DNA of 64,000 nt from assembly GCF_003334355.1 (NCBI RefSeq), contig NZ_QOWP01000016.1. One strand, written 5' to 3'. A program made the translations under genes and the position numbers. Below the pieces are notes generated by a model. The model searched no databases. It was not told the DNA's origin and worked only from the letters and a program-made list of their open reading frames with translations. The DNA is from Escherichia coli (lineage in GTDB: Bacteria > Pseudomonadota > Gammaproteobacteria > Enterobacterales > Enterobacteriaceae). Positions 13,015-52,104 of the stretch are shown one piece after another; the stretch's first letter is position 1, and each line of letters starts with the position of its first letter.

Positions 13015-14814
13015 ATGACGACACAGGTCCCACCTTCCGCGTTGCTTCCGTTGAACCCGGAGCAACTGGTACGCCTTCAGGCGGCCACGACCGATTTAAC
13101 TCCCACCCAGCTTGCCTGGGTTTCTGGCTATTTCTGGGGCGTGCTCAATCAGCAGCCTGCTGCGCTTGCAGCGACGCCAGCTCCCGCCGCAGAAATGCCG
13201 GGTATAACTATTATCTCCGCCTCGCAAACCGGCAATGCGCGCCGGGTTGCTGAAGCATTACGTGATGATTTATTAGCGGCAAAACTGAACGTTAAGCTGG
13301 TGAACGCGGGCGACTATAAATTCAAACAAATCGCCAGCGAAAAACTGCTTATCGTGGTGACGTCAACGCAAGGAGAAGGGGAACCGCCGGAAGAAGCCGT
13401 CGCGCTGCATAAGTTCCTGTTCTCCAAAAAAGCGCCGAAGCTGGAAAACACCGCATTTGCCGTGTTTAGCCTCGGCGATAGCTCTTATGAATTTTTCTGC
13501 CAGTCCGGGAAAGATTTTGACAGCAAGCTGGCGGAACTGGGCGGTGAACGCCTGCTCGACCGTGTCGATGCCGACGTTGAATACCAGACCGCTGCCAGCG
13601 AGTGGCGCGCTCGTGTGGTTGATGCGCTTAAATCGCGTGCGCCTGTCGCGGCACCTTCGCAATCCGTCGCTACTGGCGCGGTAAATGAAATCCACACCAG
13701 CCCGTACAGCAAAGACGAGCCGCTGGTGGCGAGCCTCTCTGTTAACCAGAAAATTACCGGGCGTAACTCTGAAAAAGACGTTCGCCATATCGAAATTGAC
13801 TTAGGTGACTCGGGCCTGCGTTACCAGCCGGGTGACGCGCTGGGCGTCTGGTATCAGAACGATCCGGCACTGGTGAAAGAACTTGTCGAACTGCTGTGGC
13901 TGAAAGGCGATGAACCTGTCACCGTCGAGGGCAAAACGTTGCCTCTGAACGAAGCGCTACAGTGGCACTTCGAACTGACCGTCAACACCGCCAACATTGT
14001 TGAGAATTACGCCACGCTTACCCGCAGTGAAACACTGCTGCCGCTGGTGGGCGATAAAGCGAAGTTACAGCATTACGCCGCGACGACGCCGATTGTTGAC
14101 ATGGTGCGTTTCTCCCCGGCACAGCTTGATGCCGAAGCGCTAATTAATCTGCTGCGCCCGCTGACGCCGCGTCTCTATTCCATTGCCTCCTCGCAGGCGG
14201 AAGTCGAGAACGAAGTACACGTCACCGTTGGTGTGGTGCGTTACGACGTGGAAGGCCGCGCCCGTGCCGGTGGTGCCTCCAGCTTCCTCGCTGACCGCGT
14301 GGAAGAAGAGGGCGAAGTCCGCGTATTTATCGAACATAACGATAACTTCCGCCTACCAGCCAATCCAGAAACCCCGGTGATTATGATTGGCCCAGGCACC
14401 GGTATCGCGCCGTTCCGCGCCTTTATGCAGCAACGTGCTGTCGATGAAGCACCGGGTAAAAACTGGCTGTTCTTTGGCAACCCGCACTTTACGGAAGATT
14501 TCCTCTACCAGGTGGAGTGGCAGCGCTACGTCAAAGAGGGCGTGCTGACACGTATCGATCTCGCCTGGTCGCGCGATCAAAAAGAAAAAGTTTACGTACA
14601 AGACAAACTACGCGAACAGGGCGCGGAGCTGTGGCGCTGGATCAATGACGGTGCCCACATTTATGTCTGCGGCGACGCTAATCGCATGGCGAAAGACGTT
14701 GAGCAGGCACTTCTGGAAGTGATTGCCGAATTTGGTGGCATGGACACCGAAGCGGCGGATGAATTTTTAAGTGAACTGCGCGTAGAGCGCCGTTATCAGC
14801 GAGATGTCTACTAA
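13015..14814 (+). CDS. cysJ: Sulfite reductase [NADPH] flavoprotein alpha subunit
   Basis: 599-aa ORF; TAATG overlap with cysI. Confidence 0.95.
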
Positions 14815-16526
14815 TGAGCGAAAAACATCCAGGGCCTTTAGTGGTCGAAGGAAAACTGACAGACGCCGAGCGCATGAAGCTTGAAAGCAACTACCTGCGC
14901 GGCACCATTGCGGAAGATTTAAACGATGGCCTGACCGGCGGCTTTAAGGGCGATAACTTCCTGCTGATCCGCTTCCACGGCATGTATCAGCAGGATGACC
15001 GCGACATCCGCGCCGAACGTGCTGAACAGAAGCTGGAGCCGCGCCACGCGATGCTGCTTCGCTGTCGTCTGCCGGGTGGGGTGATTACCACTAAACAGTG
15101 GCAGGCGATCGACAAATTTGCCGGTGAAAACACCATCTATGGCAGCATTCGCCTGACCAACCGCCAGACGTTTCAGTTCCACGGCATTCTGAAAAAGAAC
15201 GTCAAACCGGTGCACCAGATGCTGCACTCGGTTGGTCTTGATGCGCTGGCGACCGCTAACGACATGAACCGTAACGTACTCTGCACCTCGAACCCTTACG
15301 AGTCGCAGCTACACGCGGAAGCGTATGAATGGGCGAAGAAAATCTCTGAACATCTGCTGCCGCGTACCCGCGCGTATGCGGAGATCTGGCTCGATCAGGA
15401 AAAAGTCGCCACCACCGATGAAGAACCGATCCTCGGTCAGACTTATTTGCCGCGTAAATTCAAAACCACGGTAGTGATCCCGCCGCAGAACGATATCGAT
15501 CTGCATGCCAACGACATGAACTTCGTGGCAATCGCCGAAAACGGCAAGCTGGTAGGCTTTAACCTGCTGGTGGGCGGCGGGCTTTCCATCGAACACGGTA
15601 ATAAGAAAACCTACGCCCGCACGGCGAGCGAGTTTGGTTATCTGCCGCTGGAGCATACCCTGGCGGTGGCGGAAGCCGTCGTGACGACTCAGCGCGATTG
15701 GGGTAACCGTACCGATCGTAAAAATGCCAAAACCAAATACACGCTGGAGCGCGTGGGTGTTGAGACATTTAAAGCGGAAGTGGAACGTCGCGCGGGGATC
15801 AAATTCGAACCGATCCGCCCGTATGAATTTACAGGGCGCGGCGATCGCATTGGTTGGGTAAAAGGCATTGATGACAAATGGCACCTGACGCTGTTTATCG
15901 AAAATGGCCGAATCCTTGATTATCCGGGGCGTCCGCTGAAAACCGGCCTGCTGGAGATCGCGAAGATCCACAAAGGCGATTTCCGTATTACGGCGAACCA
16001 GAATCTGATCATCGCCGGTGTACCTGAAAGCCAGAAAGCGAAGATCGAGAAGATCGCTAAAGAGAGCGGGTTAATGAATGCCGTCACGCCGCAGCGTGAA
16101 AACTCAATGGCCTGCGTGTCATTCCCGACTTGCCCGCTGGCGATGGCGGAAGCGGAGCGTTTCCTGCCGTCTTTTATCGACAACATCGATAATTTAATGG
16201 CGAAACATGGTGTCAGCGATGAGCATATCGTGATGCGTGTAACAGGCTGCCCGAACGGTTGTGGTCGCGCGATGCTGGCGGAAGTGGGCCTGGTGGGTAA
16301 AGCGCCGGGTCGCTACAACCTGCATCTTGGCGGCAACCGCATTGGGACACGTATCCCACGGATGTATAAAGAAAACATCACCGAGCCGGAAATCCTGGCG
16401 TCGCTTGATGAACTGATAGGGCGCTGGGCGAAAGAGCGCGAAGCGGGCGAAGGCTTCGGCGACTTTACGGTGCGTGCGGGCATCATTCGCCCGGTGCTCG
16501 ATCCGGCGCGCGATTTGTGGGATTAA
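14814..16526 (+). CDS. cysI: Sulfite reductase [NADPH] hemoprotein beta subunit
   Basis: 570-aa ORF immediately after cysJ. Confidence 0.95.
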
Positions 16527-17391: not shown

Positions 17392-17693
17392 GCGAGCAGT
17401 ATTCCTGATTTTAAACGTGAACGCCGCTGGAAGAATTATCAGGTATAGAATGGCGTCGGGTGCTTGAGGCTGTCTGGCGTTAAGCATTCGCGAGGTTCCA
17501 GATGGACAAAAGCCCCAGGCGATATTTCTATCAACCTGAGGCCAGCGTTCGAACCCAAACAATTCGAATGTTAGTCTCTTCTTTGCAGGGAGGCAAGACA
17601 TGTGTATATCACTGTAATTCGATATTTATGAGCAGCATCGAAAAATAGCCCGCTGATATCATCGATAATACTAAAAAAACAGGGAGGCTATTA

Positions 17694-17825
17694 ATGGAAC
17701 CTTTTAAATATATATGCCATTACTGGGGAAAATCCTCAAAAAGCTTGACGAAAGGAAATGATATTCATCTGTTAATTTATCATTGCCTTGATGTTGCTGC
17801 TGTTGCAGATTGCTGGTGGGATTAA
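17694..17825 (+). pseudogene. cas3: cas3 5' segment: 43 codons (MEPFKYICHYWGKSSKSLTKGNDIHLLIYHCLDVAAVADCWWD) closed by an in-frame TAA
   Basis: ATG at 17694 with AGGGAGG 7 nt upstream; TAA at 17823-17825; the same frame continues into the 832-codon ORF. Confidence 0.7.
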
Positions 17826-17861
17826 TCAGTCGTACTGCAAAATACTTTTTGCCGAAATGAA

Positions 17862-20360
17862 ATGCTATCAAAACAGAGGGTGAAGGCCTGGCTGTTATTT
17901 TTCATTGCTCTTCATGATATTGGAAAGTTTGATATACGATTCCAATATAAATCAGCAGAAAGTTGGCTGAAATTAAATCCTGCAACGCCATCACTTAATG
18001 GTCCATCAACACAAATGTGCCGTAAATTTAATCATGGTGCAGCCGGTCTGTATTGGTTTAACCAGGATTCACTTTCAGAGCAATCTCTCGGGGATTTTTT
18101 CAGTTTTTTTGATGCCGCTCCTCATCCTTATGAGTCCTGGTTTCCATGGGTAGAGGCCGTTACAGGACATCATGGTTTTATATTACATTCCCAGGATCAA
18201 GATAAGTCGCGTTGGGAAATGCCAGCTTCTCTGGCATCTTATGCTGCGCAAGATAAACAGGCTCGTGAGGAGTGGATATCTGTACTGGAAGCATTATTTT
18301 TAACGCCAGCGGGGTTATCTATAAACGATATACCACCTGATTGTTCATCACTGTTAGCAGGTTTTTGCTCGCTTGCTGACTGGTTAGGCTCCTGGACTAC
18401 AACGAATACCTTTCTGTTTAATGAGGATGCGCCTTCCGACATAAATGCTCTGAGAACGTATTTCCAGGACCGACAGCAGGATGCGAGCCGGGTATTGGAG
18501 TTGAGTGGACTTGTATCAAATAAGCGATGTTATGAAGGTGTTCATGCACTACTGGACAATGGCTATCAACCCAGACAATTACAGGTGTTAGTTGATGCTC
18601 TTCCAGTAGCTCCCGGGCTGACGGTAATAGAGGCACCTACAGGCTCCGGTAAAACGGAAACAGCGCTGGCCTATGCTTGGAAACTTATTGATCAACAAAT
18701 TGCGGATAGTGTTATTTTTGCCCTCCCAACACAAGCTACCGCGAATGCTATGCTTACGAGAATGGAAGCGAGCGCGAGCCACTTATTTTCATCCCCAAAT
18801 CTTATTCTTGCTCATGGCAATTCACGGTTTAACCACCTCTTTCAATCAATAAAATCACGCGCGATTACTGAACAGGGGCAAGAAGAAGCGTGGGTTCAGT
18901 GTTGTCAGTGGTTGTCACAAAGCAATAAGAAAGTGTTTCTTGGGCAAATCGGCGTTTGCACGATTGATCAGGTGTTGATATCGGTATTGCCAGTTAAACA
19001 CCGCTTTATCCGTGGTTTGGGAATTGGTCGAAGTGTTTTAATTGTTGATGAAGTTCATGCTTACGACACCTATATGAACGGCTTGCTGGAGGCAGTGCTC
19101 AAGGCTCAGGCTGATGTGGGAGGGAGTGTTATTCTTCTTTCCGCAACCCTACCAATGAAACAAAAACAGAAACTTCTGGATACTTATGGTCTGCATACAG
19201 ATCCAGTGGAAAATAACTCCGCATATCCACTCATTAACTGGCGAGGTGTGAATGGTGCGCAACGTTTTGATCTGCTAGCTCATCCAGAACAACTCCCGCC
19301 CCGCTTTTCGATTCAGCCAGAACCTATTTATTTAGCTGACATGTTACCTGACCTTACGATGTTAGAGCGAATGATCGCAGCGGCAAACGCGGGTGCACAA
19401 GTCTGTCTTATTTGCAATTTGGTTGACGTTGCACAAGTATGCTACCAACGGCTAAAGGAGCTAAATAACACGCAAGTAGATATAGATTTGTTTCATGCAC
19501 GCTTTACGCTGAACGATCGTCGAGAAAAAGAGAATCGTGTTATTAGCGATTTCGGAAAAAATGGGGAGCGAAATGTTGGACGAATACTTGTCGCCACGCA
19601 AGTCGTGGAACAATCGCTCGACGTTGATTTTGATTGGTTAATTACCCAGCATTGTCCCGCAGATTTGCTTTTCCAACGATTGGGTCGTTTACATCGCCAT
19701 CATCGCAAATATCGTCCCGCTGGTTTTGAGATTCCTGTTGCCACCATTTTGCTGCCTGATGGCGAGGGTTACGGACGACATGAGCATATTTATAGCAACG
19801 TTAGAGTCATGTGGCGGACGCAGCAACATATTGAGGAACTTAATGGAGCATCCTTATTTTTCCCTGATGCCTACCGGCAATGGCTGGATAGCATTTACGA
19901 TGATGCTGAAATGGATGAGCCAGAATGGGTCATCAAAGGCATGGATAAGTTTGAAAGCGCTGAGTGTGAAAAGAGGTTCAAGGCTCGCAAGGTTCTGCAG
20001 TGGGCTGAAGAATATAGTTTGCAGGATAACGATGAAACCATTCTTGCGGTAACGAGGGATGGGGAAATGAGCCTGCCATTATTGCCTTATGTACAAACGT
20101 CTTCAGGTAAACAACTGCTCGATGGCCAGGTCTACGAGGACCTAAGTTATGAACAGCAGTATGAGGCGCTTGCACTTAATCGCGTCAATGTACCCTTCAC
20201 CTGGAAACGTAGTTTTTCTGAAGTAGTAGATGAAGATGGGTTACTTTGGCTGGAAGGGAAACAGAATCAGGATGGATGGTTCTGGCAGGGTAACAGTATT
20301 GTTATTACCTACACTCGGGATGAAGGGATGACCAGAGTCATCCCTGCAAATCCCAAATAA
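17862..20360 (+). CDS. cas3: Cas3 HD-nuclease/helicase, longest intact ORF (832 aa); lacks the first 56 codons of the recalled 888-aa protein
   Basis: HD motif (FFIALHDIGKF), Walker A (APTGSGKTE) and DEVH box (LIVDEVHAYD) are all present; no obvious SD upstream of ATG 17862. Confidence 0.85.
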   Translation: MLSKQRVKAWLLFFIALHDIGKFDIRFQYKSAESWLKLNPATPSLNGPSTQMCRKFNHGAAGLYWFNQDSLSEQSLGDFFSFFDAAPHPYESWFPWVEAVTGHHGFILHSQDQDKSRWEMPASLASYAAQDKQAREEWISVLEALFLTPAGLSINDIPPDCSSLLAGFCSLADWLGSWTTTNTFLFNEDAPSDINALRTYFQDRQQDASRVLELSGLVSNKRCYEGVHALLDNGYQPRQLQVLVDALPVAPGLTVIEAPTGSGKTETALAYAWKLIDQQIADSVIFALPTQATANAMLTRMEASASHLFSSPNLILAHGNSRFNHLFQSIKSRAITEQGQEEAWVQCCQWLSQSNKKVFLGQIGVCTIDQVLISVLPVKHRFIRGLGIGRSVLIVDEVHAYDTYMNGLLEAVLKAQADVGGSVILLSATLPMKQKQKLLDTYGLHTDPVENNSAYPLINWRGVNGAQRFDLLAHPEQLPPRFSIQPEPIYLADMLPDLTMLERMIAAANAGAQVCLICNLVDVAQVCYQRLKELNNTQVDIDLFHARFTLNDRREKENRVISDFGKNGERNVGRILVATQVVEQSLDVDFDWLITQHCPADLLFQRLGRLHRHHRKYRPAGFEIPVATILLPDGEGYGRHEHIYSNVRVMWRTQQHIEELNGASLFFPDAYRQWLDSIYDDAEMDEPEWVIKGMDKFESAECEKRFKARKVLQWAEEYSLQDNDETILAVTRDGEMSLPLLPYVQTSSGKQLLDGQVYEDLSYEQQYEALALNRVNVPFTWKRSFSEVVDEDGLLWLEGKQNQDGWFWQGNSIVITYTRDEGMTRVIPANPK

Positions 20361-26449: not shown

Positions 26450-26600
26450 GAGTTCCCCGCGTCAGCGGGGATAAACCGCCAAAGCAAAAGAAGTCGTCGA
26501 TAATATGCGTGAGTTCCCCGCGTCAGCGGGGATAAACCGGGCGCACTGGATGCGATGATGGATATCACTTAGAATTCCCCGCCCCTGCGGTAGAACACCC
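26450..26600 (+). CRISPR. Cas-adjacent CRISPR array (CRISPR2.1-like): 2 intact repeats plus a degenerate terminal repeat, 2 spacers
   Basis: GAGTTCCCCGCGTCAGCGGGGATAAACCG at 26450 and 26511 (T at repeat position 13, where the distal array has C); degenerate GAATTCCCCGCCCCTGCGGTAGAACACCC at 26572. Confidence 0.93.
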
Positions 26601-26620
26601 AGCTCCCATTTTCAAACCCA

Positions 26621-35485: not shown

Positions 35486-36625
35486 ATGAGCGCGGGAAGC
35501 CCAAAATTCACCGTTCGCCGCATTGCGGCTTTGTCACTGGTTTCGCTATGGCTGGCAGGCTGTTCTGACACTTCAAATCCACCGGCACCGGTCAGCTCCG
35601 TTAATGGCAATGCACCTGCAAATACCAATTCTGGTATGTTGATTACGCCGCCGCCGAAAATGGGGACGACATCTACAGCGCAGCAACCGCAAATTCAGCC
35701 GGTGCAGCAGCCACAAATTCAGGCTACTCAACAACCGCAAATCCAGCCAGTGCAGCCAGTAGCTCAGCAGCCGGTACAGATGGAAAACGGACGCATCGTC
35801 TATAACCGTCAGTATGGGAACATTCCGAAAGGCAGTTATAGCGGCAGTACCTATACCGTGAAAAAAGGCGACACACTTTTCTATATCGCCTGGATTACTG
35901 GCAACGATTTCCGTGACCTTGCTCAGCGCAACAATATTCAGGCACCATACGCGCTGAACGTTGGTCAGACTTTGCAGGTGGGTAATGCTTCCGGTACGCC
36001 AATCACTGGCGGAAATGCCATTACCCAGGCCGACGCAGCAGAGCAAGGAGTTGTGATCAAGCCTGCACAAAATTCCACCGTTGCTGTTGCGTCGCAACCG
36101 ACAATTACGTATTCTGAGTCTTCGGGTGAACAGAGTGCTAACAAAATGTTGCCGAACAACAAGCCAACTGCGACCACGGTCACAGCGCCTGTAACGGTAC
36201 CAACAGCAAGCACAACCGAGCCGACTGTCAGCAGTACATCAACCAGTACGCCTATCTCCACCTGGCGCTGGCCGACTGAGGGCAAAGTGATCGAAACCTT
36301 TGGCGCTTCTGAGGGGGGCAACAAGGGGATTGATATCGCAGGCAGCAAAGGACAGGCAATTATCGCGACCGCAGATGGCCGCGTTGTTTATGCTGGTAAC
36401 GCGCTGCGCGGCTACGGTAATCTGATTATCATCAAACATAATGATGATTACCTGAGTGCCTACGCCCATAACGACACAATGCTGGTCCGGGAACAACAAG
36501 AAGTTAAGGCGGGGCAAAAAATAGCGACCATGGGTAGCACCGGAACCAGTTCAACACGCTTGCATTTTGAAATTCGTTACAAGGGGAAATCCGTAAACCC
36601 GCTGCGTTATTTGCCGCAGCGATAA
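35486..36625 (+). CDS. nlpD: Murein hydrolase activator lipoprotein NlpD (LysM + M23 peptidase-like)
   Basis: 379 aa; lipobox LAGCS; Q/P-rich repeat region. Confidence 0.93.
35681..35752 (+). repeat. Three imperfect 24-bp tandem repeats inside nlpD, encoding QQPQIQ(P/A)(V/T)
   Basis: CAGCAACCGCAAATTCAGCCGGTG / CAGCAGCCACAAATTCAGGCTACT / CAACAACCGCAAATCCAGCCAGTG. Confidence 0.6.
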
Positions 36626-36687
36626 ATCGGCGGAACCAGGCTTTTGCTTGAATGTTCCGTCAAGGGATCACGGGTAGGAGCCACCTT

Positions 36688-37680
36688 ATGAGTCAGAATA
36701 CGCTGAAAGTTCATGATTTAAATGAAGATGCGGAATTTGATGAGAACGGAGTTGAGGTTTTTGACGAAAAGGCCTTAGTAGAAGAGGAACCCAGTGATAA
36801 CGATTTGGCCGAAGAGGAACTGTTATCGCAGGGAGCCACACAGCGTGTGTTGGACGCGACTCAGCTTTACCTTGGTGAGATTGGTTATTCACCACTGTTA
36901 ACGGCCGAAGAAGAAGTTTATTTTGCGCGTCGCGCACTGCGTGGAGATGTCGCCTCTCGCCGCCGGATGATCGAGAGTAACTTGCGTCTGGTGGTAAAAA
37001 TTGCCCGCCGTTATGGCAATCGTGGTCTGGCGTTGCTGGACCTTATCGAAGAGGGCAACCTGGGGCTGATCCGCGCGGTAGAGAAGTTTGACCCGGAACG
37101 TGGTTTCCGCTTCTCAACATACGCAACCTGGTGGATTCGCCAGACGATTGAACGGGCGATTATGAACCAAACCCGTACTATTCGTTTGCCGATTCACATC
37201 GTAAAGGAGCTGAACGTTTACCTGCGAACCGCACGTGAGTTGTCCCATAAGCTGGACCATGAACCAAGTGCGGAAGAGATCGCAGAGCAACTGGATAAGC
37301 CAGTTGATGACGTCAGCCGTATGCTTCGTCTTAACGAGCGCATTACCTCGGTAGACACCCCGCTGGGTGGTGATTCCGAAAAAGCGTTGCTGGACATCCT
37401 GGCCGATGAAAAAGAGAACGGTCCGGAAGATACCACGCAAGATGACGATATGAAGCAGAGCATCGTCAAATGGCTGTTCGAGCTGAACGCCAAACAGCGT
37501 GAAGTGCTGGCACGTCGATTCGGTTTGCTGGGGTACGAAGCGGCAACACTGGAAGATGTAGGTCGTGAAATTGGCCTCACCCGTGAACGTGTTCGCCAGA
37601 TTCAGGTTGAAGGCCTGCGCCGTTTGCGCGAAATCCTGCAAACGCAGGGGCTGAATATCGAAGCGCTGTTCCGCGAGTAA
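36688..37680 (+). CDS. rpoS: RNA polymerase sigma factor RpoS (sigma-38), apparently intact
   Basis: 330 aa from [24 protein letters not shown]; codon 33 at 36784-36786 is GAG (Glu). Confidence 0.95.
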
Positions 37681-37696
37681 GTAAGCATCTGTCAGA

Positions 37697-37730
37697 AAGG
37701 CCAGTCTCAAGCGAGGCTGGCCTTTTCTGT
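37697..37730 (+). terminator. rpoS intrinsic terminator
   Basis: AAGGCCAGTCTC pairs with GAGGCTGGCCTT (about 12 bp, one wobble), loop AAGC, tail TTCTGTG. Confidence 0.6.
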
Positions 37731-37736
37731 GCACAA

Positions 37737-37770
37737 TAAAAGGTCCGATGCCCATCGGACCTTTTTATTA
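37737..37770. terminator. Bidirectional intrinsic terminator between rpoS and ygbN
   Basis: AAAAAGGTCCGATG cc CATCGGACCTTTTTATT: 10-bp stem flanked by an A-tract and a T-tract. Confidence 0.6.
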
Positions 37771-37773
37771 AGG

Positions 37774-39138
37774 TCAAATTACCGCCCATACGCACCAGGT
37801 AATTAAGAATCCGGTAAAACCGAGAATGGTCGTTAACACTGTCCAGGTTTTCAGACCGTCTGCTACCGACAACCCCAGATATTTGGTCACAATCCAGAAC
37901 CCTGAGTCATTAATATGTGACGCACCAAGCCCACCAAAGCAGGCTGCCAGCGTCACCAATACGCACTGAATCGGATTCAATCCCATCACCGCTTCTGAGA
38001 GTAACCCGCCGGTTGTCAGTATTGCTACGGTTGCTGACCCCTGCGATGCACGCAGCGCCAGTGAAATAATAAATGCGGCTGGTAACAGAGGCAGGTCAAT
38101 CATTTGTAGCATGTTGGCAAGGGCTTTGCCGACGCCCGATTCCACCAGCACTTTGCCAAATACCCCTCCAGCACCAGTAACCAAAATCACTACCGCCGCA
38201 GTAGGAAGCGCTGAGCCCATAATGTCGCTGGTGTGTTGTAAGCTCCAGCCGCGACGTAAAGCCAATAACCAGAATGCCAGCACCAGCGCAATCATTAGAG
38301 CTACCATTGGTGAGCCGATCAGCTGTAGCGTACCAAGCAGGGGATGCGAAGGCGGCATCAGTGTTGCGGAAACCGTACCCGCCATGATAATCGCGATAGG
38401 AATAACAATTAGCGAGGTGACCAGCGCGACGCCCGGTGGATTTATTTTATCGCTTAATTTTGTCGCGCCTTCCTCACTGGCCGGAGCCAGTTGCATCTGT
38501 TCCAGTACTTCTACTGACATCGCATATTGGCGCTTATTGATTATTTTCGCTGCAAAGTAGCCAACAACCCCTACGGGAATAGAAATCGCAATACCGATGA
38601 TGGTTAGCCAGCCGATGTCTGCGTGGAGTAACCCCGCTGCGGCGACAGGGCCTGGATGCGGCGGTACCGCCACGTGAACAGTGAGCATGATCCCAGCGAC
38701 AGGCAGGCCAAATTTGAGTGGCGATATTTTGGCAACCTTGGCAAAACCGTAAATGATTGGCGCAAGAATAATAAAGCCGACATCAAAGAAGACGGGAATA
38801 CCGAGGAAGAACGCTGCCAGAGTCAGCGCAGCGATAGTTCGTTTGTCACCTAACTTGCGACTGAAATAATTAGCCAGTGACTCTGCACCACCAGAGTGTT
38901 CGATCATACGCCCCAGCATAGCGCCCAGACCAATAATAATAGTGACGGAACCAAGCACACCGCCCATCCCGGCGATCATCACTTTACCCACTTCGCCCGC
39001 CGGTATACCTGCCGCAAGTGCGACTAACAGGCTGACGAGGAGCAAAGCAACGAATGGTTGTACCTTTGCCTTGATGACCAGCAGCAACAGCATGATTACG
39101 CCAGCTAACGCAATGCATAACAATGTAATTGTGGACAT
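37774..39138 (-). CDS. ygbN: GntP-family acid-sugar permease
   Basis: 454-aa polytopic membrane ORF. Confidence 0.9.
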   Translation of the reverse strand: MSTITLLCIALAGVIMLLLLVIKAKVQPFVALLLVSLLVALAAGIPAGEVGKVMIAGMGGVLGSVTIIIGLGAMLGRMIEHSGGAESLANYFSRKLGDKRTIAALTLAAFFLGIPVFFDVGFIILAPIIYGFAKVAKISPLKFGLPVAGIMLTVHVAVPPHPGPVAAAGLLHADIGWLTIIGIAISIPVGVVGYFAAKIINKRQYAMSVEVLEQMQLAPASEEGATKLSDKINPPGVALVTSLIVIPIAIIMAGTVSATLMPPSHPLLGTLQLIGSPMVALMIALVLAFWLLALRRGWSLQHTSDIMGSALPTAAVVILVTGAGGVFGKVLVESGVGKALANMLQMIDLPLLPAAFIISLALRASQGSATVAILTTGGLLSEAVMGLNPIQCVLVTLAACFGGLGASHINDSGFWIVTKYLGLSVADGLKTWTVLTTILGFTGFLITWCVWAVI

Positions 39139-39226
39139 GGGAAACCCTGTCTGAAAGTTATAGTTAACCTACCCCATCCGTAGATGGGGGGATGTATGGG
39201 TACGTTGTAATTAGGGATTTAACGAA

Positions 39227-40003
39227 TTAGCGCCAGGCGTCAAACCAGCCAAGCCCTTCTTCGGTGAGGCCACGAGGTTTATATTCACAACCGATCCAGC
39301 CCTGATATCCCACCTCATCGAACAGGCGGAACAGCCACGGATAGTTGATTTCTCCATCGTCCGGTTCATGTCGATCAGGTAGTCCGGCAATTTGTACGTG
39401 CGCATATTTCCCGGCGTAGTCGCGGATTAAATGCGTCAGGTTGCCATCTACTTTTTGCGCATGAAAAGTATCTAGTTGAATAAACACGTTATCTCGCGCA
39501 ACCTCTTCAACAATAGCCAGTGCCTGATACTGGCTGGAGAAGAGATAATGAGGCTTAACGCCGGGGCTGAGTGCTTCAACTAATATTCGCTTGCCGTGTG
39601 GCGCAAAGCGGTCGGCAGCGTAGCGGATATTATCGATAAATACTGCCCGGTACCGTTCAGCATCTTCGCCAGCGGGCACGACGCCTGCCATCACATGGAC
39701 TTGTTCACAATTGAGCGCCAATGCATATTCCAGTGCCAGGTCGATGTCTGCGTGTGCTTCGTGCTCACGTCCGGGAAGGGCGGATAATCCCCATTCCCCC
39801 GCATTAATATCTCCGGGAGCGGTATTGAACAGCGCCAGTGTCAGATGGTTTTGCTCCAGTTGCTTTTGGATTTGCAGGGTGGAGTAGTTATAGGGAAACA
39901 GAAATTCCACAGCATCGAACCCGGCTTTTCGCGCTGCGGCGAAGCGTTCAATAAAAGGCACTTCGGTGAACATCATGGATAAATTAGCTGCAAAACGAGG
40001 CAT
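39227..40003 (-). CDS. ygbM: Hydroxypyruvate isomerase-like TIM-barrel enzyme (2-oxo-tetronate isomerase, OtnI)
   Basis: 258 aa. Confidence 0.88.
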
Positions 40004-40007
40004 TGCA

Positions 40008-40646
40008 TTAACTCCTTAATTCCGCAATTTCACCTGCGGTCAGATAACGGATCGGGCGGTCACCGAGAATAAAAATCAGCTTTGCCGTTTCCTCCAGCTC
40101 TTCCATATTGTTGGCGGCTTCTTGCAGGCTTTCACCGCAAACCACTGGGCCATGATTTGCCAGTAAAAAAGCCTGATTGTCTGCTGCCAGTTCCGCCAGA
40201 TCCTGTGCGATGCGTTTATCGCCCGGTCGGTAATAAGGCACCAGCGGGACATTTCCCATCCGCATCACCACGTATGGTGTGAACGGACGAATAACGTTGC
40301 TGCTGTCCAGCCCTTGCAGGCAGGAAAGCGCCGTCGACCATGTGCTGTGCAAATGCACCACCGCTTTACAGCGCGGATTGTTGCGATACAGCGCCAGATG
40401 AAAGAGCACCTCTTTCGAGGGTTTGTCACCACTTAACCATTCGCCATCCGCGGCGACTTTGGAAAGCCGCTGCGGATCGAGATTGCCCAGGCATGAACCT
40501 GTCGGTGTCGCCAGTAAATTCCCGTCAGGTAAAAGCAGCGACAGATTGCCAGCCGAACCGGTTGCATAGCCGCGCTGAAAGAATGAACTGGCAATCCGCG
40601 TCATCTCCTCTCGCAAAGACTGCTCTACTTTTGCGAAATCGCTCAT
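40008..40646 (-). CDS. ygbL: Class II aldolase/adducin-family decarboxylase (OtnC)
   Basis: 212 aa. Confidence 0.88.
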
Positions 40647-41905
40647 GATAAAAACTCTCTTTGGGCTCGTGAAAAAAAGGCGTCATCACCGAAGTTGCCA
40701 GATTTAAGGGCGAGTGAGACAGGCTTATCCAGTGCGTTTACCCACGGCACGCCGGGGGAAATGGTTGGGCCAATATGAAACCCTTTTATTCCCAGGCTCT
40801 GTGTGACTACGCCGGAGGTCTCACCGCCTGCGACAATAAAGCGTGTCACGCCTTCCGCTGCTAACCGCGCCGCTAGTTGAGAAAACAGTGTTTCTACTGC
40901 CTGACTGGCTTTTTGTGCACCGTATTGCTGTTGAATTGCTGCCAATGCGTCAGTGCTGGCGGTGGCAAAAACCAGTGGAGCAAGTACACTTTCCTGGCCC
41001 AGAACCCACTCTGCCAGTTCGTGTGCATAAGCGGCCAGAGTTTCAATTGAGAGGCAGCGTGCCACATCAACTTCACGGGCTGGTGCAATTTGACGGTAAT
41101 GTGCTACCTGGCGGTTGGTCATTTGAGAGCATGAACCGGAGAGCACTACGCCGCGCCCAGCGAGCGGACGCCCTGCTTTGCGAGCCTGGTTACCGTTTTC
41201 TTGCGCCCACTGCCGGGCCAGGCCAATCGCCAGACCAGAACCGCCCGTTACCAGTGGGGCATCGCGCAAGGCTTCTCCCTGAATTTCCAGATGGTGTTCG
41301 GTCAGCGCATCAAGCACCGCGTAGCGGTAGCCCTCTTGCTGTAAGCGAGCCAGCTCTTGACGAACGGCATCCACACCTTGTTCGAAAACATGTGCCGAAA
41401 CGACGCCGCAGCGCCCTGTGGATTGCGCTTCAACCAGACGGGGAAGATAGCTGTCGGTCATGGGATTTACCGGGTGATGGCGCATCCCGGATTCGGCCAG
41501 CAGTTGATTCATTACGAACAAATACCCCTGATAAACCGTACGTCCGTTGACCGGCAGGGCCGGAGAGAAGACCGTAAACGGCGTGTCGAGAGCATCCATT
41601 AAGGCATCGGTAACCGGGCCAATATTACCTTTCGCCGTACTGTCGAAAGTAGAGCAGTATTTGAAATAGATCTGTTTGCAACCTTGCTGTTGCAACCAGC
41701 TCAGAGCCGCCAGCGATTGCTGTGTGGCTTCAACCACTGGACAGGAGCGCGTTTTCAGGCTGATCACCAGTGCGTCGATTGCTTCCGGCATTTTACCTGT
41801 TGGAACACCGTTAATTTGTACCGTTGGTAGACCGTTTTCCACCAGAAAACTGGCGATATCCGTCGCGCCGGTAAAATCATCGGCGATAACGCCAATCTTG
41901 ATCAT
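40643..41905 (-). CDS. ygbK: Four-carbon acid-sugar kinase, DUF1537 family (OtnK)
   Basis: 420-aa ORF starting MIKIGVIADDFTGATD. Confidence 0.85.
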   Translation of the reverse strand: MIKIGVIADDFTGATDIASFLVENGLPTVQINGVPTGKMPEAIDALVISLKTRSCPVVEATQQSLAALSWLQQQGCKQIYFKYCSTFDSTAKGNIGPVTDALMDALDTPFTVFSPALPVNGRTVYQGYLFVMNQLLAESGMRHHPVNPMTDSYLPRLVEAQSTGRCGVVSAHVFEQGVDAVRQELARLQQEGYRYAVLDALTEHHLEIQGEALRDAPLVTGGSGLAIGLARQWAQENGNQARKAGRPLAGRGVVLSGSCSQMTNRQVAHYRQIAPAREVDVARCLSIETLAAYAHELAEWVLGQESVLAPLVFATASTDALAAIQQQYGAQKASQAVETLFSQLAARLAAEGVTRFIVAGGETSGVVTQSLGIKGFHIGPTISPGVPWVNALDKPVSLALKSGNFGDDAFFSRAQREFLS

Positions 41906-42810
41906 GATTTCGCTCCCGGTAGAGTGATGCCAGAGAAAATCTTGATAACTGCGCTATCGTCTTCTTTCCCGTAACCCGCGTTACTGGCGCTGGTGAACAT
42001 ATTCAATGCTGTTGAGGCCAATGGCAGCGGGAAGTGCAGGGCTTTGGCTGTATCGGCAACCAGACCAAGATCCTTAACAAAAATATCGACGGCTGAATGC
42101 GGGGTGTAATCGCCATCCACCACATGACGCATCCGGTTTTCGAACATCCAGGAATTTCCGGCGGCATTGGTCACGACGTCATACATCACATCCAGCGGGA
42201 TCCCCGCACGGGCTGCAAGTGCCATCGCTTCGGCTCCGGCAGCAATATGTACGCCCGCTAACAACTGGTGAATAATTTTTACGGTCGAACCTAGTCCCGG
42301 TTCTGCACCTATGCGATAAACTTTTCCGGCAACGGCTTCCAGCACGGGTGCCAGTCGTTCAAAGGCAATATCGCTACCGGAGGCCATGACAGTCATTTCA
42401 CCGTTAGCGGCTTTTACTGCACCACCAGAAACTGGCGCATCCAGCATTTCCAGATCGAATCCAGCCAGAGCGGTAGCAATTTCTTGCGCATCAGCACTAG
42501 CGATAGTGGAAGAAACCATTACTGCCGTACCGGGTTTCAGATGTTGTGCAACGCCTGTTTCACCAAACAGCACCTGTTTAACCTGGGCCGCATTGACCAC
42601 CAGCACCAGCAGTGCGTCCAGTTTTTCGGCAAACGTCGCGGCGTTATCAGAAACCCCGCAAGCACCTGCCTCTTTCAACGTAGCGCAGGCATTGCTGTTC
42701 AGGTCTGCGCCCCAGGTAGAAAGACCTGCGCGGACACATGACAGTGCTGCTCCCATTCCCATTGACCCTAAGCCAACGATACCGACATGAAACTCAGATC
42801 CCGTTTTCAT
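41902..42810 (-). CDS. ygbJ: NAD-dependent L-threonate dehydrogenase (3-hydroxyisobutyrate dehydrogenase family, LtnD)
   Basis: 302 aa; N-terminal GxGxxG (VGIVGLGSMGMGAA). Confidence 0.88.
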   Translation of the reverse strand: MKTGSEFHVGIVGLGSMGMGAALSCVRAGLSTWGADLNSNACATLKEAGACGVSDNAATFAEKLDALLVLVVNAAQVKQVLFGETGVAQHLKPGTAVMVSSTIASADAQEIATALAGFDLEMLDAPVSGGAVKAANGEMTVMASGSDIAFERLAPVLEAVAGKVYRIGAEPGLGSTVKIIHQLLAGVHIAAGAEAMALAARAGIPLDVMYDVVTNAAGNSWMFENRMRHVVDGDYTPHSAVDIFVKDLGLVADTAKALHFPLPLASTALNMFTSASNAGYGKEDDSAVIKIFSGITLPGAKS

Positions 42811-42975
42811 CTGCTCTCCTTGTTAATTTAAGTGATATTTTGTTTGATATTGTGAATATAAGCGCTGGAAGATAACGATATGATGATCTGATTCACATAA
42901 ATTAACATTGTGTGTTATTTTATGTGAACTAAGCGTTAGTTGCGCCGCGCACGTTTCGCAGGCAAATAGCGTAGA

Positions 42976-43773
42976 ATGTCAGCAGGACAAAGGAAGGAGC
43001 AAAAGTTGATACCCGTAGAGCGTCGCCAAATCATCCTTGAGATGGTAGCTGAAAAAGGCATTGTCAGTATTGCTGAACTAACGGACAGAATGAATGTGTC
43101 ACATATGACCATTCGTCGGGATTTACAAAAACTGGAGCAGCAGGGAGCCGTTGTGCTGGTGTCCGGAGGCGTCCAGTCTCCGGGACGCGTGGCGCATGAA
43201 CCTTCTCATCAGGTAAAAACTGCGCTGGCAATGACGCAAAAAGCGGCTATTGGCAAGCTGGCGGCAAGTCTTGTTCAGCCGGGAAGTTGTATCTATCTGG
43301 ATGCGGGAACGACCACGTTAGCGATAGCACAGCATCTGATTCACATGGAGTCACTGACTGTGGTCACAAACGATTTCGTTATTGCGGACTACTTGCTCGA
43401 CAACAGTAATTGCACAATTATTCACACTGGCGGTGCAGTGTGTCGGGAAAACCGTTCCTGTGTCGGGGAAGCCGCTGCGACCATGCTGCGCAGCCTGATG
43501 ATTGATCAGGCTTTTATTTCTGCATCGTCATGGAGTGTGCGGGGGATTTCTACGCCAGCGGAAGATAAAGTCACGGTGAAACGGGCGATTGCCAGTGCCA
43601 GCCGCCAGCGAGTTTTGGTCTGTGATGCGACGAAATATGGTCAGGTGGCGACATGGCTGGCGTTACCATTAAGCGAGTTTGATCAGATTATTACAGACGA
43701 CGGTTTGCCGGAGAGTGCCAGTCGCGCGCTGGTGAAGCAGGATCTCTCTTTGCTGGTAGCGAAAAATGAATAA
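42976..43773 (+). CDS. ygbI: DeoR-family transcriptional regulator; start uncertain (ATG 42976 or TTG 43006)
   Basis: HTH region SIAELTDRMNVSHMTIRRDL; divergent from ygbJ. Confidence 0.85.
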   Translation: MSAGQRKEQKLIPVERRQIILEMVAEKGIVSIAELTDRMNVSHMTIRRDLQKLEQQGAVVLVSGGVQSPGRVAHEPSHQVKTALAMTQKAAIGKLAASLVQPGSCIYLDAGTTTLAIAQHLIHMESLTVVTNDFVIADYLLDNSNCTIIHTGGAVCRENRSCVGEAAATMLRSLMIDQAFISASSWSVRGISTPAEDKVTVKRAIASASRQRVLVCDATKYGQVATWLALPLSEFDQIITDDGLPESASRALVKQDLSLLVAKNE

Positions 43774-43796
43774 TGGCCTGCAATAACACCGGGTTA

Positions 43797-43837
43797 CTCA
43801 TGCTTCACAGAAGAAGCATGAGACTACTTTATTTTAT
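43797..43837 (+). terminator. Intrinsic terminator after ygbI
   Basis: CTCATGCTTC pairs with GAAGCATGAG (10 bp), loop ACAGAA, tail ACTACTTTATTTTAT. Confidence 0.55.
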
Positions 43838-44480
43838 AAAATGACAGCCGCCCGCTGTTCGGCGATCCGGTATCAATATAAATCTGGTTAGCGAACGTCT
43901 GAATGTTATCAAACATCATATGTCCAAATATAAAATAATCAGCGCCGTTTATTTGTTGTAACTCGCCATTAAGCGATTTCTGCACACGATCAACAGGCCA
44001 GAGTAATTCGCTCTCCGCTATTTCTTTACCAAAGAGATATTCACTCCCCGGATAATCTGCATGTGCGATGGCATATTTTATGTTGTCGTTAGTGATTTCA
44101 ATAATATGTGGAAGGTGATGGAATTTCAGCAACAGATCTATTGCCTCTTGTTGCTCTGAATCATTTAAATCGAAAAACCAGTCACCACCGCTGGCAAGCC
44201 ACATATTGCCATCGCCAGTTTCGAATGCCTCAAGCGCCATCGCTTCGTGGTTGCCTTTAACCGACGTAAACCAGGGTTGGTTTAGCAGGCGCAGGACGTC
44301 AAGACTCTCCGGTCCACGATCAATATTATCGCCGACAGAAATAAGTAAGTCGATTTCGGGGAAAAAAGAGAGTTGATGTAAGCGGGATTGTAATAACTGA
44401 TATTCACCATGAATATCACCAACGACCCATATATGGCGATAGTGATGGGCATTGATTTTTTGATAGCGTGTAGATGGCAT
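43824..44480 (-). CDS. pphB: Serine/threonine protein phosphatase 2
   Basis: 218 aa; metallophosphatase motifs GDIHG and GDNIDRG. Confidence 0.9.
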   Translation of the reverse strand: MPSTRYQKINAHHYRHIWVVGDIHGEYQLLQSRLHQLSFFPEIDLLISVGDNIDRGPESLDVLRLLNQPWFTSVKGNHEAMALEAFETGDGNMWLASGGDWFFDLNDSEQQEAIDLLLKFHHLPHIIEITNDNIKYAIAHADYPGSEYLFGKEIAESELLWPVDRVQKSLNGELQQINGADYFIFGHMMFDNIQTFANQIYIDTGSPNSGRLSFYKIK

Positions 44481-44585
44481 GGTTTTACCCTGTAAAATAA
44501 GCTTTCCTATTATACAGGGTGTTTTTATTTTATTCGTCAGTTGTCGTTAATATTCCCGATAGCAAAAGACTATCGGGAATTGTTA

Positions 44586-47147
44586 TTACACCAGGCTCTT
44601 CAAGCGATAAATCCACTCCAGCGCCTGACGCGGGGTGAGTGAATCCGGATCAAGATTTTCCAGAGCTTCGACCGCAGGCGAAGTTTCTTCTGGTACTGAC
44701 AGCAAAGACATTTGCGTACCATCCACTTGCGTAGCGGCGGCGTTCGGCGAAATGCTTTCCAGCTCACGCAGCTTTTGCCGTGCGCGCTTAATAACCTCTT
44801 TTGGCACGCCTGCCAGAGCTGCAACCGCCAGGCCGTAGCTTTTGCTCGCCGCGCCATCCTGCACGCTGTGCATAAAGGCAATGGTGTCGCCGTGCTCCAG
44901 TGCATCGAGATGCACGTTAGCGACGCCTTCCATTTTCTCCGGTAACTGGGTCAGCTCGAAATAGTGGGTAGCAAACAGCGTCAATGCCTTAATCTTATTC
45001 GCCAGATTTTCTGCGCACGCCCACGCCAGCGACAGACCATCGTAAGTGGACGTTCCACGCCCGATCTCATCCATCAATACCAGACTGTACTCGGTGGCGT
45101 TATGTAAAATATTGGCGGTTTCGGTCATCTCCACCATAAAGGTTGAGCGCCCGGACGCTAGGTCATCTGCCGCGCCTACGCGGGTAAAGATGCGATCGAT
45201 AGGTCCAATCTCGACTTTTTGTGCCGGTACATAGCTGCCGATGTAGGCCATCAGCGCAATCAGTGCGGTCTGGCGCATATAGGTACTTTTACCGCCCATG
45301 TTCGGACCGGTGATGATCAACATGCGGCGCTGCGGCGACAGATTCAGCGGGTTGGCGATAAATGGCTCATTCAGTACTTGTTCAACTACCGGATGGCGAC
45401 CTTCGGTAATGCGAATGCCCGGTTTATCAATGAAGGTCGGGCAGGTGTAGTTCAGGGTATAGGCGCGTTCCGCCAGGTTCACCAGCACGTCGAGTTCCGC
45501 CAGCGCGCTCGCGCTCTGTTGCAACGCTTCCAGATGCGGCAACAGCAGGTCGAACAACTCTTCATAAAGCTGTTTTTCCAGTGCCAGTGCTTTGCCTTTT
45601 GAGGTGAGAACTTTATCTTCGTACTCTTTTAGCTCTGGAATGATGTAGCGCTCGGCGTTTTTCAGCGTCTGGCGACGCATGTAGTTGATGGGTGCCAGAT
45701 GGCTTTGCCCACGGCTGATTTGAATGTAGTAGCCGTGCACCGCATTAAAGCCAACTTTCAGCGTGTCCAGGCCGGTACGTTCACGCTCGCGGACTTCCAG
45801 ACGCTCCAGATAATCGGTCGCGCCGTCAGCCAGCGCGCGCCACTCATCCAGCTCTTCGTTATAGCCCGATGCGATAACACCACCGTCGCGTACCAGCACC
45901 GGCGGTGTGTCGATGATTGCTCGCTCCAGCAGATCGCGCAGCTCGGCAAACTCGCCCATCTTCTCGCGTAGCGCCTGTACCGGTGCACTATCGACAGTTT
46001 CTAACTGCGCACGCAGCTCCGGCAGTTGCTGGAAAGCGTGGCGCATACGGGCCAGATCGCGTGGGCGAGCAGTTCGTAAAGCCAGACGTGCCAGAATACG
46101 TTCCAGGTCGCCGACCTGACGCAGTACCGGCTGCAACTCGGCGGTGAAATCCTGCAATGCGCCAATAGTTTGCTGGCGCTCAAGCAACACGCGGGTATCG
46201 CGCACTGGCATATGCAGCCAGCGTTTCAGCATACGACTACCCATCGGCGTGACGGTGCAGTCGAGCACAGAAGCCAGCGTATTTTCCGCACCGCCCGCCA
46301 GGTTCTGAGTAATTTCCAGGTTACGACGTGTCGCGGCATCCATAATGATGCTGTCCTGCTCACGTTCCATGGTGATGGAACGAATATGCGGCAGAGTCGT
46401 ACGTTGGGTATCTTTCGCATACTGCAACAGACAACCGGCAGCACAAAGTCCGCGCGGCGCGTTCTCGACGCCAAAACCGACCAGATCGCGGGTCCCAAAT
46501 TGCAGATTCAACTGCTGGCGCGCGGTGTCGATTTCAAACTCCCACAGCGGGCGACGGCGCAGGCCGCGACGGCCTTCAATTAACGACATTTCAGCAAAAT
46601 CTTCTGCATACAGCAGTTCCGCAGGATTAGTGCGTTGCAGTTCTGCCGCCATCGTTTCCCGGTCAGCCGGTTCGCTCAGGCGAAAACGCCCGGAACTGAT
46701 ATCCAGCGTCGCGTAGCCGAAACCTTTGCTGTCCTGCCAGATAGCCGCCAGCAGGTTGTCCTGACGCTCCTGCAACAGGGCTTCATCGCTGATGGTGCCT
46801 GGCGTAACGATACGCACAACTTTGCGCTCAACCGGACCTTTGCTGGTCGCCGGATCGCCAATTTGTTCGCAGATGGCAACGGACTCGCCCTGATTCACCA
46901 GTTTGGCGAGGTAGTTTTCCACCGCATGGTAGGGGATCCCCGCCATCGGGATCGGCTCTCCCGCTGAAGCGCCGCGTTTGGTCAGTGAGATATCCAGCAG
47001 TTGCGACGCGCGTTTTGCGTCGTCATAAAACAGTTCATAAAAATCACCCATCCGGTAAAACAGCAGGATCTCGGGATGCTGGGCTTTCAGCTTGAGATAC
47101 TGCTGCATCATGGGCGTATGGGCGTCGAAATTTTCTATTGCACTCAT
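44586..47147 (-). CDS. mutS: DNA mismatch repair protein MutS
   Basis: 853 aa; Walker [10 protein letters not shown]. Confidence 0.96.
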
Positions 47148-49975: not shown

Positions 49976-50986
49976 TTAGCATATACGCGGAAGCGGTTCG
50001 GCGTGTGGTAAATCGAGGGTTCGTTTCACGCCATACAGACCGGCAAGACGAACACCTTTACGTTCCACCACTTCACCAATCAGCGCCGCGTCTTTCCCCA
50101 GTGGATGGGAATGTAACGCTGCCAGCACTTGCTCTGCCGCGTTGCGTTCAACAGCTATTACTAGTTTGCCTTCGTTGGCAAAGTTCAGGGCGTCCAGTCC
50201 CAGCAATTCGCAAACGCCACGCACGGCAGGTTTAACAGGCAGTGCCGCTTCTGAAAGTTCAATACCACAACCGCAGGCTGCCGCGAACTCATGAACCACC
50301 GCGTTTACACCACCACGGGTGGCATCACGCAGCGCTTTCACGCCGGGAATGTCACGCAGCGTCTGAATAAGCGGCGTCAGCACCGCGCAGTCGCTGACCA
50401 GTTCGCCATCCAGCCCCAGCTGCTCACGCAGGTTAAGGATAGTCGCCCCGTGGTCGCCGAGTGTACCGCTCACCAGCAATACATCGCCTGCGGTTAGCGT
50501 CTGTGCGCCCCAGTGAATATTCGCCGGAATTGCGCCCATGCCAGCGGTGTTGATAAACAGTTTATCTACCGCGCCGCGCTGCACCACTTTAGTATCGCCA
50601 GTAACGATGGCAATGCCTGCCGTGCGGGCGGTTTCTGCCATGCTGGTCACTACGGCTTTCAGTGTCTCCATCGGCAATCCTTCTTCGAGGATAAAGCCAC
50701 AGGAGAGATAGCGCGGAATAGCGCCACTGACCGCAACGTCATTCGCGGTGCCGCAAATCGCCAGCTTGCCGATATTACCGCCAGGAAAGAACAGCGGGTC
50801 AATGACGTAACTGTCGGTGGAGAACGCCAGACGATCGCCTTCTGCTACCAGCTGCGCCAGATCAAGACGTGCCTGGTCTTCCTGCTCTGCCAGCCACGGG
50901 TTGGCAAAGGCTTCCATAAACAGGCTGTTGATTAATTGCTGCATCGCCTGGCCGCCGCTGCCGTGGGCGAGTTGGATATTATTCAC
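49976..50986 (-). CDS. hypE: Hydrogenase maturation factor HypE
   Basis: 336 aa ending ...PRIC. Confidence 0.93.
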   Translation of the reverse strand: MNNIQLAHGSGGQAMQQLINSLFMEAFANPWLAEQEDQARLDLAQLVAEGDRLAFSTDSYVIDPLFFPGGNIGKLAICGTANDVAVSGAIPRYLSCGFILEEGLPMETLKAVVTSMAETARTAGIAIVTGDTKVVQRGAVDKLFINTAGMGAIPANIHWGAQTLTAGDVLLVSGTLGDHGATILNLREQLGLDGELVSDCAVLTPLIQTLRDIPGVKALRDATRGGVNAVVHEFAAACGCGIELSEAALPVKPAVRGVCELLGLDALNFANEGKLVIAVERNAAEQVLAALHSHPLGKDAALIGEVVERKGVRLAGLYGVKRTLDLPHAEPLPRIC

Positions 50987-52104
50987 GCTTCATTCTCCTG
51001 CTGACGATACTGATACCACGCGGCGCACGCTCCTTCGGAGGAGACCATCAGTGCACCAAATGCGGTTTGAGGATTACAGGTGTTACCAAACAGCGGGCAT
51101 TGATGCGGCTTACATTTGCCCGTTAATACTTCACCACAACGTGCGCGCGGGTCATCGCAGACCTGCTGCGGTGCCGGGCGGAAATGTGCTTCGGCATCGA
51201 ATCGTTGATAATCCGGCGTCAGGTGCACGCCAGAAGATTCAATCACGCCTAAGCCGCGCCATTCGCTGTCGCCGTTGACACAGAACACATCAGCAATTGC
51301 CTGTTGCGCCAGCAGGTTACCGGCATCCGGTACCACCCGACGATACTGATTCTCTACCTTGCTGTGGGCCGCTATTTTCTGCTCCACCAGCATCACCACG
51401 CCTTGCAGTAGATCAAGGGGTTCGAAACCAGCGACCACCAGCGGACGATGAAAATCGCTGGCGATAAAATTATAGGCATCAGTGCCGATAACCATACTAA
51501 CGTGGCCCGGCGCGAGGAACGCGTCGATACCGTTATCCGGCTGTTCCAGCAAACTGCGCAGCGTCGGGATAAGCGTAATATGCTGGCAGAAGAAGTAAAA
51601 ATTCTGCACATCGCGGGCTTTCGCCTGTTGCAGAGTGATGGCGGTGGTCGGCATGGTGGTTTCAAAACCTAAGCCGAAGAACACCACTTTGCGGGTTGGA
51701 TTCTCCTGCGCCAGTTTCAACGCATCCATTGGCGAGTAAACGATGCGAACATCGGCACCGCGTGCTTTTGCCTGCAACAGCGATCCCTGTTTCCCCGGCA
51801 CGCGCATGGCGTCGCCAAAGGTACAGAAGATGACTTCCGGATGGCTGGCAATCTCCACGCAGGTGTCGATTCTACCCATCGGCAGTACGCACACCGGGCA
51901 ACCCGGACCGTGGATAAACTCAACGTTTTCAGGCAGTAACTGGTCGAGGCCGAATTTAAAAATGGCGTGGGTATGACCACCGCACACTTCCATAATCCGC
52001 AGAGGGCGTTCGGCTGTGTAAGAGAGATGTGAAGCACGTTCGCGCAGATGCTCAATTAACTGCATCACCTGTTCCGGCGCGCGATATTCATCAACAAAAC
52101 GCAT
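50983..52104 (-). CDS. hypD: Hydrogenase maturation factor HypD
   Basis: 373 aa. Confidence 0.93.
   Translation of the reverse strand: MRFVDEYRAPEQVMQLIEHLRERASHLSYTAERPLRIMEVCGGHTHAIFKFGLDQLLPENVEFIHGPGCPVCVLPMGRIDTCVEIASHPEVIFCTFGDAMRVPGKQGSLLQAKARGADVRIVYSPMDALKLAQENPTRKVVFFGLGFETTMPTTAITLQQAKARDVQNFYFFCQHITLIPTLRSLLEQPDNGIDAFLAPGHVSMVIGTDAYNFIASDFHRPLVVAGFEPLDLLQGVVMLVEQKIAAHSKVENQYRRVVPDAGNLLAQQAIADVFCVNGDSEWRGLGVIESSGVHLTPDYQRFDAEAHFRPAPQQVCDDPRARCGEVLTGKCKPHQCPLFGNTCNPQTAFGALMVSSEGACAAWYQYRQQENEA

Follow-up and report, generated by a model that had tools for sequence, protein, structure and literature searches.

Our analysis indicates, with a probability of roughly 0.97, that the rpoS gene in the window, by which we mean the whole stretch of 64,000 nucleotides of Escherichia coli DNA analysed here, is an ordinary full-length gene, predicted to be functional, of a natural strain that is close to K-12 but is not K-12. 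We predict function because the reading frame is intact and identical to widespread natural alleles; the sequence shows no sign of a defect and nothing in it speaks against this reading.

The product of rpoS, sigma-S (sigma-38), is an alternative sigma factor of RNA polymerase in charge of the general stress and stationary-phase regulon. Its coding sequence occupies positions 36688..37680 on the plus strand, 330 codons followed by TAA, as judged from translation, from the NCBIfam equivalog models and from identity to annotated rpoS genes. The original prediction held that this 330-codon frame is intact and that codon 33 is GAG. Indeed, translation from the ATG at 36688 to the TAA ending at 37680 yields 330 residues with no internal stop, and re-reading of the local sequence, ...GCC TTA GTA GAA GAG GAA CCC..., returns GAG (Glu) at the same position and base, 36784..36786 on the plus strand, with G as its first base; at this base MG1655 carries C (CAG, Gln) and W3110 carries T (TAG, amber). 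The list of open reading frames also offers a longer frame of 342 amino acids that begins at an in-frame ATG at 36652. We rejected this as the true start, since both the NF004207 profile and the annotated homologues begin at 36688; the equivalent start is annotated in MG1655 and in PSS-12 as well.

Family membership is clear from the profile searches. With the NCBIfam RpoS equivalog NF004207 the 330-residue product reaches 604.6 bits (cut-off 394), and its residues 1-329 align to positions 1-329 of a profile of length 329, which makes 36688 the family-consistent start. A further RpoS equivalog, TIGR02394, scores 480.7 bits (cut-off 378.7), and in the same kind of search every RpoD and RpoH model falls under its own cut-off on this protein. 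The sigma-S chains of the E. coli holoenzyme structures 6kj6_F, 5ipl_F and 6omf_F in the PDB match residues 1-330 with E values of about 1e-210. The chain in 6kj6_F, which is the crystallised K-12 sigma-S, differs from the protein of the window at a single residue, having Gln at position 33 where the window has Glu. This residue sits within the acidic N-terminal stretch of the protein; the alignment to TIGR02394 begins only after it, at residue 48. With 99.9% identity to the annotated MG1655 gene and 100% identity to the gene in many other genomes, chance resemblance is not an issue.

The surroundings of the gene are those expected for rpoS, whose position directly downstream of nlpD is conserved in the Enterobacteriaceae. 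In the window nlpD (35486..36625, plus strand, 379 amino acids) lies directly upstream of rpoS on the same strand, as it does in MG1655, from which it differs at four positions, all synonymous. The 3' part of nlpD together with the nlpD-rpoS spacer (35972..36687, plus strand) is identical to MG1655 in a base-by-base comparison; we take this segment to contain the long regulatory 5' leader as well as the main promoter of rpoS, which would lie inside nlpD. On the other side, rpoS is adjoined by the convergent gene ygbN, which encodes a GntP-family transporter (37774..39138, minus strand) and is 100% identical to its MG1655 counterpart. From there the MG1655 gene order is kept through ygbN-M-L-K-J-I, pphB and mutS (37774-47147), so that the upstream leader, the ygbN sequence and the order from nlpD through rpoS and ygbN to mutS are the same in the two genomes. 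A scan of the whole window with Rfam models at their gathering thresholds found no family near rpoS.

How unusual is GAG at codon 33? We searched 5,426 complete E. coli genomes with three versions of a 61-mer that has the first base of the codon at its centre. The exact GAG version is present in 4,822 of the 5,415 genomes with a match, many of them natural isolates. The exact CAG version occurs in 173 genomes, which among the matches listed include MG1655 and its derivatives, BW25113, MC4100, BW2952, DH10B, RV308 and DHB4. The exact TAG version occurs in 121, among whose listed matches are W3110, EMG2, WG1, J53, NCM3722, AG100, HMS174, RR1, S17-1, ER-series strains and BLR(DE3). The remaining genomes, about 300, have differences elsewhere in the 61-mer and stand outside the three allele counts. 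Among the matches listed, the strains with CAG or TAG are K-12 derivatives or carriers of K-12 DNA; BLR(DE3), for example, is a B strain whose recA-queE segment, and with it the nonsense mutation at codon 33, came from K-12 (PMC5454202). The original prediction had named CAG for MG1655 and TAG for several K-12 lineages. The first of these is borne out by direct comparison with NC_000913.3, and the second holds for W3110, EMG2, WG1, J53, NCM3722, HMS174 and AG100 on the evidence of the 61-mer and of published accounts (PMC2700278, PMC5454202).

The gene as a whole is equally common. When 60 evenly spaced rows are taken from the ranking of 5,415 genomes, the 993-nucleotide rpoS sequence is 100% identical in rows 1-15, which implies that about 1,300 genomes, or about a quarter, carry an identical gene. 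In two clinical strains, CAVP879 and CAVP880 (NZ_CM176324.1 and NZ_CM176323.1), the same rpoS sequence is split by an insertion of IS1A, so that the match falls into two pieces spanning 1,770 bp, an instance of natural rpoS inactivation. Published surveys agree with the genome counts: all the VTEC strains tested had GAG at codon 33, as against CAG in MG1655 (PMC2700278), and Glu33 was found in all of the pathogenic and probiotic isolates studied in PMC1852560. Judged by sequence, then, GAG (Glu33) is the species-wide wild-type allele of rpoS and an expected state. Both the polymorphism and the allele found in the window are already known biology. Reports of the polymorphism, of where it occurs and of what it entails go back more than 20 years, to Atlung et al. 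(2002) and to Subbarayan and Sarkar (2004) as they are cited in PMC2700278, and the nonsense mutation at codon 33 lowers sigma-S activity according to Subbarayan and Sarkar (2004) as cited in PMC5454202.

While the rpoS locus itself is nearly that of MG1655, the window at large is not. We aligned the window with positions 2,835,000-2,909,000 of the MG1655 reference, NC_000913.3, and found it collinear with the reverse complement of approximately 2,840,240-2,904,100, with 573 mismatches and in addition indels. An exact full-window match to MG1655, the outcome that would have spoken against a source other than that strain, is therefore absent, and the earlier claim that the window does not come from MG1655 stands. 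Identity is 98.34% over window positions 813-26539 (25.7 kb, 409 mismatches and 16 gap openings) and 99.557% over positions 26513-64000 (37.5 kb, 164 mismatches and 2 gap openings); the first 800 bases or so, which belong to a CRISPR array, can hardly be aligned at all. Within this background rpoS shares 992 of its 993 nucleotides with the MG1655 gene (b2741, NP_417221.1), the sole difference being nucleotide 97, which is C in MG1655 and G in the window and gives Q33E. In fact, over the roughly 3.2 kb that start 716 nucleotides before the ATG and run through ygbN (35972-39138), this one base of codon 33 is the only difference from MG1655. The amber allele of W3110, EMG2 and WG1 is likewise the same gene altered at the same polymorphic base, with the rest of the 61-mer identical to the window, but those strains meet a stop at codon 33 where the gene of the window reads through to the full 330 amino acids; the version with Gln33 is full length as well.

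The similarity to MG1655 is a mosaic. Some 20 genes show 100% nucleotide identity, among them cysN, cysC, ftsB, ispF, truD, umpG, ygbN/M/L/I, hypA/C, hycA/H/I and ascB, and they lie between blocks at 96-98.8%. The more divergent genes include cysI (14814-16526, 96.0% identity), hypD (50983-52104, 97.0%), mutS (44586-47147, 98.8%) and the cas genes (97.3-98.8%). Such a pattern is consistent with recombination patches in what would be a natural close relative of K-12. Moreover, ygbK/otnK, which encodes a 3-oxo-tetronate kinase (40643..41905, minus strand), specifies 420 amino acids in the window, as in PSS-12, whereas a 1-nucleotide indel near the 3' end leaves 388 in MG1655; from the sequences, the window appears to have the full-length form and K-12 a truncated one. 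The window thus carries neither K-12 allele of rpoS, CAG or TAG, nor the 388-residue ygbK.

Comparison with complete genomes points away from K-12 too. The central 25 kb of the window (25000-49999) has no exact match among the 5,426 complete E. coli genomes, and the best matches, at 99.7-99.8%, are E41, PSS-12, OW1E2 and several ST361 strains, with K-12 genomes absent from these best matches. The rpoS of PSS-12 (protein WP_000081550.1, the Glu33 form that natural isolates carry) is 100% identical to that of the window in both nucleotides and protein, although the 25 kb flanking it differ from the window by approximately 0.1-1.3%.

The CRISPR arrays show the same distance from K-12. The distal array (81..900) has 14 repeats and 13 spacers, as compared with 7 repeats and 6 spacers in MG1655, and a lone degenerate repeat lies beyond it at 1406-1432. 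Spacer 12 of this array (GAGCCTGACGAGACTACTGAGGCCGTTCTGTC) is the only one found in the distal array of MG1655, where it is the oldest; one spacer older than this is present in the window and missing from MG1655. The distal array, taken as the first 1.5 kb of the window, occurs in none of the 5,426 complete genomes searched, the best matches being PSS-12 at 95% and LR-64-1 at 89%. The array next to the cas genes, between cas2 and iap (26452..26539), consists of 2 canonical repeats and 1 spacer, as against 13 and 12 in MG1655, and its sole canonical spacer, CCAAAGCAAAAGAAGTCGTCGATAATATGCGT, was not found in MG1655. After this array the cas2-iap region (26452-26602) continues with an ancestral terminal spacer (GGCGCACTGG...), also present in MG1655, and then with a degenerate repeat. 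Apart from that terminal spacer by the degenerate repeat, the canonical spacers in common with MG1655 number one (GAGCCTGACGAG...), so that the K-12 complement of 12 + 6 spacers between canonical repeats is not that of the window. The spacer counts, 13 + 1 as against 6 + 12, had been invoked in the original prediction as an argument against MG1655, and they bear that argument out.

We made two further observations. The cas3 gene (17694..20360, plus strand) has a premature TAA at codon 44 (17823-17825) in place of the CAA (Gln) of MG1655, and its longest frame after the stop runs from Met57 (17862..20360) over 832 amino acids. The T at 17823 is absent from all 1,066 complete E. coli genomes with a match to the corresponding 61-mer, the matches listed all having exactly one mismatch; the stop reflects either a sequencing error or a knockout private to this strain. 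Between cysH and cas3, at 17458-17614 on the plus strand, lies a sok antitoxin RNA (RF01794; 103.7 bits, gathering score 59), the counterpart of the annotated sokX locus of MG1655 and the only Rfam family match in the whole window at gathering thresholds.

Could the source of the window nevertheless be a K-12 lineage with GAG at codon 33? Some K-12 strains have been reported with Glu at this codon (PMC2700278), and many genes of the window, as we saw, have 100% nucleotide identity with MG1655. Since approximately 89% of genomes carry GAG and Glu33 is also reported in some K-12 stocks, codon 33 taken alone is weak evidence on the strain; it is the comparison over the whole window that excludes K-12. 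The 573 mismatches and the indels, cysI, hypD and cas genes that are too divergent for a laboratory lineage, the single canonical spacer in common, the longer otnK/ygbK and the want of any K-12 genome among the best matches to positions 25000-49999 all run counter to such an origin. We consider a K-12 stock with Glu33 to be refuted as the source by this divergence, and its probability to be close to nil. A similarly negligible probability attaches to the proposal that the G at 36784 was not inherited as a wild-type base but came in through faulty sequencing or assembly, or through a recent private mutation that turned CAG or TAG into GAG. Nothing specific speaks for it, the nearest point in its favour being the apparently private change at codon 44 of cas3 elsewhere in the window. 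The exact 61-mer with G, on the other hand, is common to thousands of complete genomes, the whole gene is identical in approximately 1,300, and CAG and TAG are seen, among the matches listed, in K-12-related strains only, to which the window does not belong.

A rather different alternative grants that the frame is intact and proposes that some defect elsewhere, either beyond the coding sequence or beyond the window, attenuates sigma-S in this strain. RpoS is controlled also by loci that lie beyond the window, namely rssB, crl, hfq and small RNAs, and an intact frame is therefore no proof of a normal level or activity of RpoS. Moreover, phenotypes related to rpoS vary among isolates that all have Glu33 (PMC1852560), and selection commonly favours the loss of RpoS function (PMC2700278). 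Against this, the coding sequence, the nlpD-rpoS spacer and the 716 nucleotides upstream equal those of MG1655 except at codon 33, and the protein is identical to that of many natural isolates. We regard attenuation as unlikely and retain the reading of an ordinary, predictably functional rpoS in a natural strain near K-12.

How would the K-12 alleles then be related to the one in the window? They would be laboratory-lineage derivatives of the GAG sequence. In a first step GAG would have become TAG (amber) in early stocks such as EMG2, WG1 and W3110, which takes one transversion; in a second step, one transition would have turned TAG into CAG (Gln) in MG1655 and its relatives. We infer this order because EMG2 and WG1, which are the earliest K-12 stocks, have TAG, and it agrees with Atlung et al. 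(2002) as cited in PMC2700278. Since the rest of the rpoS locus equals that of K-12, the allele of the window looks like the form from which the K-12 allele arose. A more far-reaching version, to which we give very little credence, is that the strain holds the exact ancestral K-12 rpoS locus and, as a separate matter, that its type I-E CRISPR-Cas system is perhaps in early decay, the latter suggested by the private nonsense codon in cas3 and by a cas-adjacent array that is down to one canonical spacer. If the locus were exactly ancestral, the strain could possibly serve as a natural isogenic reference for the gain by K-12 of the amber and then of the Gln33 allele.

More generally, codon 33 of rpoS is a classic marker for telling K-12 stocks apart, and the allele in the window matters only as a strain marker; it neither opens nor resolves a scientific question and adds nothing novel about rpoS. 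For the source strain, an intact Glu33 allele would predict a normal general stress response, and its Glu33 status is useful for reading the stress, biofilm and stationary-phase phenotypes of that strain.
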